DNA of 64,000 bases from Escherichia phage vB_Eco_J-01. The position numbers and the translations under genes were made by a program. The stretch lies in sequence record PQ438393.1; one strand, written 5' to 3'. Within the stretch, counting starts at the first letter, position 1. Every line of letters starts with the position of its first letter. Positions 45,883 through 48,581 of this stretch are shown one piece after another. The notes under the pieces are model-generated. The model saw nothing but the letters and a program-made list of their open reading frames with translations. It was not told the origin of the DNA and ran no database searches.

Positions 45883-47616
45883 TTAGTCAACCTGGATGGT
45901 TCCCATAGTACGAAGAACCTCTACATCAACACGGTTGCGGATATCAGTAAATGTTTCATCACGTCCTTCTACTTGTGGTGTAATAACCGTACCATCCCTG
46001 AAGATAACTTTTAACTCATTGTCTTCATCTTGAATATCTTTAAAAGACAGATTATCCACAAGAGAAAGTTTACCATTTGTATCCTTAACAACCTTAATAA
46101 AACCTTTTGCAGAGCGTTTACCAGGATCAGTTTTAGGCTCCTTACTTACCAAAATTTCGTGTTCACCGATGATACTACCTGTTGCTTTAACAGCAAAACC
46201 AAAAGTATCTCGTGTATTGAACTGATAAGTATAACTACCAACACCAAATACAATATTGGAAGCTGCAAAACCTTTCTTCTTCAGTCGGCGTAAGATCTCG
46301 TGTTCTCGTTCAACAGTAATAGAATCACCATAAATCATACCGATGTGCTGATCAAGAACCTTGTAGCCTTTTCGGTTGATAGTACCACCAAACACTTCCC
46401 AAAGGATTTGAATAGAACCTACTGCTTCACAATAAGGAATCTCATAAGTTTCATCAATACAATCAGCAACACTGCAATCCTGAAGAACATTGTAATACTT
46501 ATTAACATCAGCCAAATGAACTACTTCAGTGGCTGTAGCAATACCGTTATTTAAAAGGTCTTCATAGTTAGCAAAAGATTCAACATTGTATCCTGCAACA
46601 ACTTTAACCGGATCTCCTGAATCTGGACGAATAACAAGACGACCATTTCGTGACATAATGGACTCTTTCAATTCTACCAGAATGCGAGTCAAGACAGCCC
46701 AGTAATCATAAGAATCTGCTACATATGAACAAAAACCTTCTGGAACAATTTCTTCAATATAGCGGCGAAGAAACTCTTTCTCTGCTACATAACGAAGCCC
46801 ATCAACATCATCTTTAAGATGTGGGAAATGTTTCTTCAGATCTTCAACAATAGCTCCAATGTTAGTCGTTGCTACTGAATGTTCTGTTGCTGGAATAGAA
46901 CCTGCAACAAACTGATCATAATCAATACCATAGTAATCATGCACAGCTTCAATAGCCAGAATATTATCTGTACCTGTGAAAGATGCCAAATGAGCGATAC
47001 CACTCTTATAACCATCTTCGATATTGCTTAAACCACGTAGGCTAAAGTCATGACACTGGAAATTAACGTGATCAATGTTATCACACGTTGCCATCGCATA
47101 CGCCATAGCGATACGCTTATACTGAAAAGCTGCTGTGGCATTAGTCATTGTCTTCCAAGTTTCATCTGACAAGAGTGTTTCCACATAGTTAGTTAACCAA
47201 AAGAATTTTTCTAAAGTGTTATGCACAGTAAACACAGGAACACCAATAGGACACAAAACACCTTCTGGCAGAGATCGAACTTCTAGCGGAAGATAACCTA
47301 AATCGTGCAATTCTCCCCAACATTCAGCAGAAGGAGCAGAAGCACCTAATGCATTCTTAGACATACGATAAAATTTATTTACTGCTGCACTACGAGACAT
47401 TTTAAAGAAGCCATCCCACATAGTTACAAGAGCATCAGTAACTGCTCGACGAATACCTAAAACAATTACACCACGTGCTTCACGATCTGCATAGTGTGCA
47501 AAGTTTTTATCATTACGAGGAGTTAAATTAGAGAAAATGAGTTTTGTATTTTGGTTGTACATCTGCTTGTGACCAGGTTTATACCAATCAGTAGCAAAAG
47601 GTGCAAAAATATTCAT
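45883..47616 (-). CDS. nicotinamide phosphoribosyltransferase-like enzyme (NAMPT/NadV family; possible Namat)
   Basis: 577 aa, size and overall similarity typical of NAMPT-family type II phosphoribosyltransferases; AAGGAG RBS; TTGACA-N17-TAAGAT promoter upstream. Confidence 0.8.
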   Translation of the reverse strand: MNIFAPFATDWYKPGHKQMYNQNTKLIFSNLTPRNDKNFAHYADREARGVIVLGIRRAVTDALVTMWDGFFKMSRSAAVNKFYRMSKNALGASAPSAECWGELHDLGYLPLEVRSLPEGVLCPIGVPVFTVHNTLEKFFWLTNYVETLLSDETWKTMTNATAAFQYKRIAMAYAMATCDNIDHVNFQCHDFSLRGLSNIEDGYKSGIAHLASFTGTDNILAIEAVHDYYGIDYDQFVAGSIPATEHSVATTNIGAIVEDLKKHFPHLKDDVDGLRYVAEKEFLRRYIEEIVPEGFCSYVADSYDYWAVLTRILVELKESIMSRNGRLVIRPDSGDPVKVVAGYNVESFANYEDLLNNGIATATEVVHLADVNKYYNVLQDCSVADCIDETYEIPYCEAVGSIQILWEVFGGTINRKGYKVLDQHIGMIYGDSITVEREHEILRRLKKKGFAASNIVFGVGSYTYQFNTRDTFGFAVKATGSIIGEHEILVSKEPKTDPGKRSAKGFIKVVKDTNGKLSLVDNLSFKDIQDEDNELKVIFRDGTVITPQVEGRDETFTDIRNRVDVEVLRTMGTIQVD

Positions 47617-47648
47617 AGTTATGTCTCCTTGTTTGTTAGTGTGGGAGT

Positions 47649-47677
47649 ATCTTACTAAGCATACTCCCTATTGTCAA
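47649..47677 (-). promoter_or_regulatory. sigma70-like promoter (TTGACA-N17-TAAGAT) for the NAMPT-like gene
   Basis: Minus-strand TTGACA (rc of 47672-47677), TAAGAT (rc of 47649-47654). Confidence 0.5.
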
Positions 47678-47687
47678 CACTTATTAT

Positions 47688-48581
47688 TTAAAAATTCCAC
47701 ACGTATGGAGATACAATTTGTTGTTGCAAATCTGACTGATTCTTAACAAGAACACCGGAATCTTCTTGGATGTTATCTTCCCACACATTAAGAGAATGAA
47801 TGCAGTCAAAGTGCTCACTTAACTCTTTAAGACCTTTAGAAAAGATACCGTGTGTAACATATAGCTCAATCTTACCTGCGTTACGAGCACGTAGCACTTT
47901 AGCCAATTCGATAAAAGTTCTACCACCATCACAGATATCATCTACGATCATCAGGTTACGCTTATTGAAATCCTGTACAGAAATGTCTGTACGAACAATA
48001 GCACCTGTTGCGGTATCTCTAACCTTCTCTGCACAGAACACATCTAAAGACATTTTCTTAGATAATTTAAATATTTTCTTAAGAGCACCACCATCAGGAC
48101 TAACAAGAGCAAAATTCTCCATACGTAACTTCCACTTTAAAGTTTCGTAAGCAATCTCTTCTTGAGGTATTACACAGAGTCTGTCAAACACTGCTGGCGT
48201 AACATCACTATGTGGATCAGCAACGATAACACGTGAGAAATTTAATGAATTAATTATAGAAGCAAAGGCTTTAACTCCGAATGCTTCCCCAGGCTCACAC
48301 ACTCTGTCTTGTCGTGCATACGGCACATACAACATGAGCAAATCAACACAATATGGTTTATGATATAGCATGTTGTCCAATGCATTCTTAGTCATAACCA
48401 AAGTCATCAAGTCTTTAGCAGATCTTACTTCTAAAGTGAGTAAGATTCTGTCTGTAGCATGATTGAAACCTGATAGATTCGTATCTAGTTGAACATGCTG
48501 TTCTCCACCAGAGAATGTAAAGACTTTAACGTCTACATCAGTAACATAACAGTCAACACCATGCAGAATACTAACTTTCAT
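47688..48581 (-). CDS. ribose-phosphate pyrophosphokinase-like enzyme (Prs family; possible Adps)
   Basis: 297 aa; Prs motifs YARQDR and PRPP-binding loop MIVDDICDGGRTF. Confidence 0.8.
   Translation of the reverse strand: MKVSILHGVDCYVTDVDVKVFTFSGGEQHVQLDTNLSGFNHATDRILLTLEVRSAKDLMTLVMTKNALDNMLYHKPYCVDLLMLYVPYARQDRVCEPGEAFGVKAFASIINSLNFSRVIVADPHSDVTPAVFDRLCVIPQEEIAYETLKWKLRMENFALVSPDGGALKKIFKLSKKMSLDVFCAEKVRDTATGAIVRTDISVQDFNKRNLMIVDDICDGGRTFIELAKVLRARNAGKIELYVTHGIFSKGLKELSEHFDCIHSLNVWEDNIQEDSGVLVKNQSDLQQQIVSPYVWNF

Follow-up and report, generated by a model that had tools for sequence, protein, structure and literature searches.

This study concerns a pair of adjacent genes of Escherichia phage vB_Eco_J-01 (sequence record PQ438393.1), which very probably forms a two-gene module of NAD+ reconstitution pathway 1 (NARP1; NAD+, nicotinamide adenine dinucleotide) as carried by phi92-like Justusliebigvirus. 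The analysis covered a stretch of 64,000 nucleotides, referred to here as the window, which represents 64 kb out of a genome of ~146 kb. Both genes lie on the minus strand, adps at 47688-48581 (297 aa) and namat at 45883-47616 (577 aa), and the two open reading frames (ORFs) were recovered exactly where an earlier, sequence-only reading had placed two adjacent minus-strand genes. Each ORF starts with ATG, stops with TAA and has the ribosome-binding site AAGGAG, and the gap between them is 71 bp, so that the Namat homologue is well within 10 genes of its partner. Based on profile comparison and clade placement, adps is predicted to encode a Prs-family ADP-ribose pyrophosphate synthetase (Adps) for the first NARP1 step, and based on profile matches and homology, namat is predicted to encode a Nampt-family nicotinamide ADP-ribose transferase (Namat) for the second.

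The window belongs to a phi92-like myovirus of the genus Justusliebigvirus, and the 2.7-kb adps-namat region is found at 97-99% nucleotide identity in 55 phage records, including phi92 (NC_023693, gp107/gp108) and the BASEL phages PaulScherrer, EmilieFrey and JohannJBalmer (Bas60-62). The orthologues in these four phages show essentially no difference from the window, with nucleotide identities from 97.1% (JohannJBalmer) to 98.7% (phi92). The window and phi92 proteins differ by 2 residues in Adps and 4 in Namat, and the spacer is identical. With pN/pS values against the phi92 orthologues of 0.037 for adps and 0.087 for namat, both are functional genes under strong purifying selection.

Assignment of the Prs-like and Nampt-like proteins

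The membership of the two proteins in the phosphoribosyl pyrophosphate (PRPP) synthetase and nicotinamide phosphoribosyltransferase families, as proposed in the sequence-only reading, was borne out far beyond chance. The 297-aa protein matched TIGR01251 (ribP_PPkin) at 118.3 bits (cut-off 113) and phrog_619 at 4e-91, while the 577-aa protein matched Pfam NAPRTase PF04095 (2e-37), phrog_448 'nicotinamide phosphoribosyl transferase' (2e-187) and NCBIfam NF006629 (460 bits; cut-off 405). The motifs YARQDR and VDDICDGGRT, on which that reading had relied, are both present in the 297-aa protein, at residues 88-93 and 213-222, respectively.

The cut-offs of the canonical Prs NCBIfam models were failed by the 297-aa protein, which reached 98 of the 297 bits demanded by NF002320 and 52 of the 536 bits demanded by NF003428. 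For a direct comparison, an Adps profile was made from 15 Adps-clade sequences in Table S1 of the discovery paper (Osterman et al., bioRxiv 10.1101/2024.02.11.579819), with the phi92-like ones excluded, and a canonical Prs profile from 7 sequences, namely E. coli Prs and six bacterial Prs, also from Table S1. The window protein scored 278 bits with the Adps profile and 81 bits with the Prs profile, and the values are comparable with those of the known enzymes in leave-one-out runs, that is, 235 and 67 bits for SpβL1 Adps and 244 and 87 bits for Bas63 Adps. In a neighbour-joining tree, the protein was nested in the Adps clade, and its identity to Bas63_0079 Adps is 36% over 226 aa (E 3e-43).

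The alignments gave the same picture at the level of single residues. The ribose-phosphate loop VDDICDGGRT (47916..47945, minus strand) is of the Adps type, whereas canonical Prs has DDMIDTGGT. Lys186 (codon 48024..48026, minus strand) falls in the alignment columns of K162 of SpβL1 Adps, K190 of Bas63 and K194 of E. coli Prs; the K162A substitution in SpβL1 Adps has been reported to inactivate the enzyme, abolishing NAD+ reconstitution. All four canonical class I Prs elements examined (DLHAxQIQGFF, DxIDTGGT, SVSxLF and a full N-terminal domain) are absent or altered: the N-terminal ~25 aa of Prs are lacking, DPHSDV stands where Prs has DLHAxQIQGFF, and the C-terminal SVSxLF helix is missing. 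Judged from these characters, the 297-aa Prs-like protein is an Adps, for which the formation of ADP-ribose pyrophosphate (ADPR-PP) is predicted.

For the 577-aa protein, the BLASTP comparison with Bas63_0080 Namat gave 40% identity over the full length (E 2e-136), and in a three-way MAFFT alignment it was 44% identical to Bas63 Namat and 32% to an Nampt of the NARP2 type. Among solved structures, the best matches were 9W5X/9W5W (1e-117), which the structural paper (NAR 2026; PMC12774641) describes as SpβL1 Namat, as opposed to 3e-48 for human Nampt. The profile or structure comparison of Adps and Namat with Prs and Nampt, proposed in the sequence-only reading as a check, thus came out on the Adps/Namat side for both proteins. 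The second-best structural match, 9KE8/9KEO (GAQTYQRNTRD), was not identifiable from the literature and was therefore not used as a reference for either Namat or Nampt.

According to the structural paper, Namat is distinguished by a selectivity clamp consisting of a helix with the motif GS-X-Φ-X-Φ-X-Φ-TRD and a β1-β2 loop that is longer and variable. The clamp helix of the window protein, GSYTYQFNTRD (residues 460-470; 46207..46239, minus strand), fits this consensus, and its Y462 and F466, at motif positions 3 and 7, correspond to the adenine-stacking residues F392 and Y396 of SpβL1 Namat. The same region reads GSFTYQYNTRD in SpβL1 Namat and GSYTYQYMTRD in Bas63 Namat, while it is GGGLLQEVTRD in the 'Nmnat-associated' NARP2-type Nampt of Cronobacter phage leB and GGALLQKVDRD in Xcc Nampt. 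The clamp loop region in the alignment, TPRNDKNFAHYADREARG (residues 32-49; 47470..47523, minus strand), is long as in Namats and has K37 at the 'third' position; in Namat this loop is longer than that of Nampt, its third residue is Arg, Lys or Tyr, and the adenine-stacking residue is at position 3 or 4. All four catalytic-core residues checked are kept, namely F191 (HDFSLRG), D217 (FTGTD), H246 (ATEHS) and R330 (IRPDSGDP), corresponding to F189, D215, the catalytic His and R306 of SpβL1.

The alignments also revealed an insertion of ~57 aa after RPDSGDP (residues 343-399; 46420..46590, minus strand). It has a longer form in Bas63 Namat, does not occur in SpβL1 Namat or the NARP2-type Nampt, and is not treated in the structural paper; a second, smaller lineage-specific insertion lies at ~residues 254-290. 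Taken together, the clamp helix, the catalytic core and the closest homologues identify the 577-aa Nampt-like protein as Namat, with NAD+-forming activity being predicted.

A further line of evidence concerns the coupling of the two proteins. A single PHROG family, phrog_12872, was matched in its two halves by Adps (residues 14-225 at family positions 9-222) and by Namat (residues 225-563 at positions 221-536), which suggests that fused Adps-Namat proteins, or assembly artefacts of that form, occur in other phages and fits a functional coupling of the two. For Shigella phage Ag3, Table S1 of the discovery paper has an entry that looks fused, and 97% of Adps-clade genes were reported to have Namat in their immediate vicinity.

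NAD+ reconstitution as the proposed function

NARP1 was found in coliphage Bas63, genes 79-80, and its biochemistry was worked out on the SpβL1 homologues (Osterman et al.). SpβL1 Adps converts ADP-ribose (ADPR) and ATP to ADPR-PP, and Prs-type activity was not seen; SpβL1 Namat joins ADPR-PP with nicotinamide to yield NAD+, PRPP being the less favoured substrate. For Bas63, the production of ADPR-PP was shown metabolomically, and the Bas63Δ79-80 mutant was sensitive to SIR2-HerA, with the rescue being independent of host pncC and nadR.

Applied to the window, the pathway would begin when a host NADase defence (SIR2-HerA, DSR, Thoeris or similar) splits NAD+ into ADPR and nicotinamide. Adps would then use ATP to add pyrophosphate to the free ribose C1'' of ADPR, yielding ADPR-PP, and Namat would let nicotinamide displace this pyrophosphate, giving NAD+ directly. 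This route would bypass both the nicotinamide mononucleotide (NMN) intermediate and NMN adenylyltransferase (NMNAT). By analogy, the pair in the phi92-like lineage would have the same activity as the Bas63, SpβL1 and FADO homologues.

The sequence-only reading had noted that no NMNAT is visible in the window, and this was upheld. The search by tblastn used four queries of the NadD/NadR type (E. coli NadD, E. coli NadR and two phage NadR-like proteins) and found no NMNAT in the window (best E 2.9) or in the complete phi92 genome (best E 0.76), the latter standing in for the rest of the source genome. In the control runs, the NadR-type queries found each other's loci at 1e-8 to 1e-32, and NadD found its own locus. 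When all six frames were swept for the HIGH-motif signature GxFxPxHxGH, no real ORF emerged, and the phi92 annotation lists no NMNAT product.

One candidate was considered and rejected as an NMNAT: the homologue of the phi92 gp158 'nucleotidyltransferase' (window 644-1237, plus strand) reached only a sub-threshold E of 0.006 with the PolyA_pol head domain, a match that points to a Pol-β-type enzyme and not to the NMNAT fold. This 197-aa protein may add CCA ends or belong to the Pol-β-type nucleotidyltransferases more generally, with a possible tie to the theme of tRNA and RNA repair. In the wider phage-wide tblastn search with E. coli NadR, NadR-like genes were seen in some ~145-kb coliphages and in Klebsiella phages, and the example inspected, LNA4, is a Seunavirus.

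The placement in the Adps clade, the clamp motif, the homology to the validated Bas63 module, the lack of an NMNAT and the published listing of phi92-like orthologues all support NARP1 rather than classical salvage, as the sequence-only reading had suspected. Every testable defining feature of NARP1 was found except at the clamp loop, and none was contradicted.

Several points weigh against this assignment. At clamp-loop position 4, the window protein has Asn38, followed by Phe39, where Bas63 has an adenine-stacking Trp. SpβL1 Adps, the enzyme with known biochemistry, is distant, at 27% identity to the 297-aa protein, and no experiments on NARP1 of phi92-like phages or Bas60-62 were found in the searchable literature. 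As Namat enzymes form NMN from PRPP in vitro, some conventional salvage via host NadR is possible. Further, the whole-genome NMNAT search was made on phi92 as a proxy, and its queries were of the NadD/NadR type, the KVP40-type NadM-Nudix family being judged by the motif sweep and the published classification.

Promoter-like elements and rival explanations

The sequence-only reading had assigned to the gene pair its own promoter, TTGACA-N17-TAAGAT. The element is real, at 47677..47649, but it lies inside the 71-bp gap between adps and namat and not upstream of the pair; therefore, it is able to serve namat only. The spacer (47617..47687, minus strand) carries this element, a hairpin and the AAGGAG of namat, and it is identical in phi92. 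The hairpin is a perfect 8-bp one, GGGAGTAT-N10-ATACTCCC at 47643-47668 (minus strand), which overlaps the spacer and the -10 of the promoter-like element and folds as RNA with a minimum free energy of -15.3 kcal/mol (z -2.8). A T-run is missing, and an intrinsic terminator was therefore rejected; the repeat could act as an operator or in the stability or processing of the RNA, or be there by coincidence.

Upstream of adps is an AT-rich divergent control region of 409 bp (48582..48990, minus strand), which contains the AAGGAG of adps and a sign change in GC skew. It has a weaker TTGACT-N17-TAGAGT (48649..48621) and, farther up, TTGACA-N17-TACCCT (from 48859). A generic promoter scan of the 4.5-kb region around the pair showed no enrichment (18 sites vs 14.4±4.1 expected). 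Window-wide, the more specific class TTGACA-N16-18-TAnnnT occurred at 19 sites vs 4.5±2.3 expected in first-order Markov simulations. Eight of these sites lie within ~12 kb on the coding (minus) strand, at 37091, 38785, 43486, 44786, 44926, 45469, 47677 and 48859, and most of the eight have a TGn extended -10 (e.g. ATATGTTAAAGT, ATATGTTAGAGT). The eight sites look like a family of strong promoters of the host type from which the tRNA/NARP1 region is transcribed, and the enrichment of this class would fit transcription there by host RNA polymerase. With one promoter-like site before each gene, early expression from host sigma-70-type promoters would be expected.

The spacer element bears on the rival explanation that survives best, although it is unlikely: the pair would act as NARP1, and Namat made from its own promoter would in addition work as an Nampt on host PRPP, passing NMN to host NadR when no ADPR is available. 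The sigma-70-like element with a ribosome-binding site directly upstream of namat and the enrichment of its motif class in the window are in line with such a dual mode, as is the NMN-forming activity of SpβL1 Namat, which is about half of that of human Nampt. Against this, only NAD+ was formed in published assays when both substrates were supplied, NARP1 phages were reported not to raise NAD+ in defence-free cells, and, as the promoter-like element overlaps a stable hairpin, it may be an RNA element and not a promoter.

It is quite improbable that the Justusliebigvirus version of NARP1 is functionally non-identical to the characterised ones. Two features could bring this about. The ~57-aa insertion together with the longer, Asn-bearing clamp loop could shift the donor specificity of Namat, for example, to modified ADPR species. 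The separate promoter and hairpin could uncouple namat from Adps, so that Namat would also serve as an Nampt on host PRPP. More speculatively, the neighbouring genes for cyclic-phosphate processing and a phosphoesterase might recycle ADPR-1'',2''-cyclic phosphate, a decay product of ADPR-PP, into the pathway.

Classical salvage, in which the Prs-like protein makes PRPP, the Nampt-like protein makes NMN, and host NadR or PncC/NadD completes NAD+, is what the names given by Pfam, PHROG, NCBIfam and GenBank imply. The score of the 297-aa protein with TIGR01251 is in keeping with these names, but it lies narrowly above the cut-off of a broad model, and the NMN formation from PRPP by Namat homologues in vitro would also fit. 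The Adps clade and Adps-type character states, the failed canonical Prs cut-offs and the adenine clamp in Namat speak against it, as do the activity of the homologous Bas63 operon in a ΔpncCΔnadR host and the SpβL1 Adps without Prs-type activity. We consider this explanation very improbable.

There is next to no probability that the Prs-like protein serves nucleotide supply, boosting PRPP in company with ribonucleotide reductases and a thymidine kinase whose genes lie elsewhere in the genome, with the adjacency of the Nampt-like gene being incidental, since, despite the many nucleotide-metabolism genes in phi92-like genomes, Adps-clade genes nearly always have Namat beside them, one fused PHROG family is matched by both proteins, and the residues are of the Adps type, not the Prs type.

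Known systems and neighbouring genes

The NARP1 module of Bas63 (JohannRWettstein, Felixounavirus, MZ501086) has the same families in the same order, adps-namat, with a short spacer, and it comes from a phage of the same host species. The clamp helix is of one type in both, GSYTYQ(F/Y)(N/M)TRD, and both Namats have the large insertion after RPDSGDP, which is shorter in the window. Bas63 belongs to Ounavirinae, whereas the window phage belongs to Stephanstirmvirinae, and the clamp loop of the window protein is 2 aa longer than that of Bas63. NARP1 of Bas63 has been validated experimentally, while the window version is known from its sequence.

In SpβL1, a Bacillus phage, the catalytic and aromatic clamp residues of the crystallised Namat and the catalytic Lys of Adps are those kept in the window. 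The SpβL1 Adps loop is of the DDLSSFGGT type, as opposed to DDICDGGRT in the window; its Namat is without the ~57-aa insertion, and its loop stacking residue is Arg40.

NARP2, consisting of Nampt and Nmnat of the KVP40 type, likewise employs an Nampt-family enzyme to counter NAD+ depletion. It starts from PRPP and needs Nmnat, which 94% of phages with a KVP40-type Nampt encode, whereas no Nmnat was found in the window or in phi92 with the NadD/NadR-type queries and the motif sweep. The Nampt of this type from Cronobacter phage leB, which is 32% identical to the window Namat, is without the clamp-helix aromatics and the long loop. Its own Nmnat partner was not seen in the 12-kb flanks, where a Pfam scan of six candidates was negative.

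The core of Adps and Namat is also common to the NARP1-AP loci, which add the Macro-domain ADP-ribose-1''-phosphate (ADPR-1''P) phosphatase Adpp against aRES, and to the RyDEP loci. The third gene of these loci is absent from the window: the 71-bp spacer contains no ORF, and no Macro or RyR domain was detected by Pfam in the flanking small ORFs that were scanned (five ORFs for Macro at E ≤0.01). Therefore, the module is plain NARP1, and not one extended as in NARP1-AP or RyDEP.

The phi92-like orthologues already appear in the discovery paper. Its Table S1 gives phi92 FR775895_00103 and PaulScherrer MZ501100_00239 as Prs/Adps homologues, with 'Namat within 10 genes: Yes' in the phi92 row, and its Table S2 gives FR775895_00104 and MZ501100_00240 as 'Adps-associated' Namats and not as 'Nmnat-associated' ones. 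Therefore, the window module is already known and is not new. The description of NARP1 dates from 2024 and that of its structural basis from 2026, and AntiDefenseFinder recognises the system. It is unlikely that residual novelty exists in the form of somewhat different properties conferred by the insertion, the altered clamp loop or the internal promoter and hairpin.

The main practical value of the finding is in annotation, and its discovery value is small. Among the matches listed, the annotated relatives are named ribose-phosphate pyrophosphokinase, nicotinamide/nicotinate phosphoribosyltransferase or hypothetical protein, and the NCBIfam 'equivalog' NF006629, which the window Namat passes, would have it labelled as nicotinate phosphoribosyltransferase. 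The annotation of NARP1 genes seems to be lagging systematically. For phage-therapy candidates of the genus, plain NARP1 should help against NADases that produce ADPR (SIR2-HerA, DSR, Thoeris type I and similar). As neither Adpp nor RyDEP is present, by the published logic the module would give no help against aRES, which yields ADPR-1''P, and would not degrade the cyclic ADPR (cADPR) signal.

Concerning the surroundings, the sequence-only reading had placed the module next to the tRNA cluster in what looked like a counter-defence island. The adjacency holds, since the cluster comprises 16 genes at 42391-45136 (minus strand), the nearest being 747 bp downstream of the Namat stop. Support for the island is weak: the ten small ORFs scanned on the flanks all fell in PHROGs of unknown function, and neither PHROG nor Pfam comparison of the flanking ORFs brought up a known anti-defence gene adjoining the module.

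The closest neighbours that could be annotated make up an RNA-repair-like cluster at 50584-53366 (plus strand), which is divergent and begins ~2 kb beyond the module. It encodes a protein with a cREC_REC cyclic-phosphate-processing receiver domain (50584-50958, 3e-14), a metallophosphoesterase (51476-52027), an Rnl1-type RNA ligase (52029-52961, 3e-14) and a kinase-like protein of the AAA_33 type (52962-53366), all on the plus strand. Together with the 16 tRNA genes, this cluster may counter defences of the anticodon-nuclease type, and the two clusters lend the neighbourhood a loose counter-defence flavour.

The tRNA cluster includes three tRNA-Met(CAT), of which at least one may be an initiator tRNA or of the tRNA-Ile2 (lysidine) type, and small ORFs lie between its genes. 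A 'hypothetical tRNA' is annotated in phi92 inside the Namat coding sequence (phi92 49736-49886, corresponding to window ~46870-47020); ARAGORN finds no window tRNA there, and the phi92 feature is therefore probably spurious.

Elsewhere in the lineage, the anti-TIR gene Atd1 is present in the genus Justusliebigvirus according to the AntiDefenseFinder paper. In phi92, gp038 (12318-13130, outside the window) is a Sir2-like 'NAD-dependent deacetylase', a member of an NAD+-using family in a genome that bears NARP1, and gp185-187 (~114.5-116.7 kb) form a trio of putative phosphoribosyltransferase, phosphatase and hydrolase.

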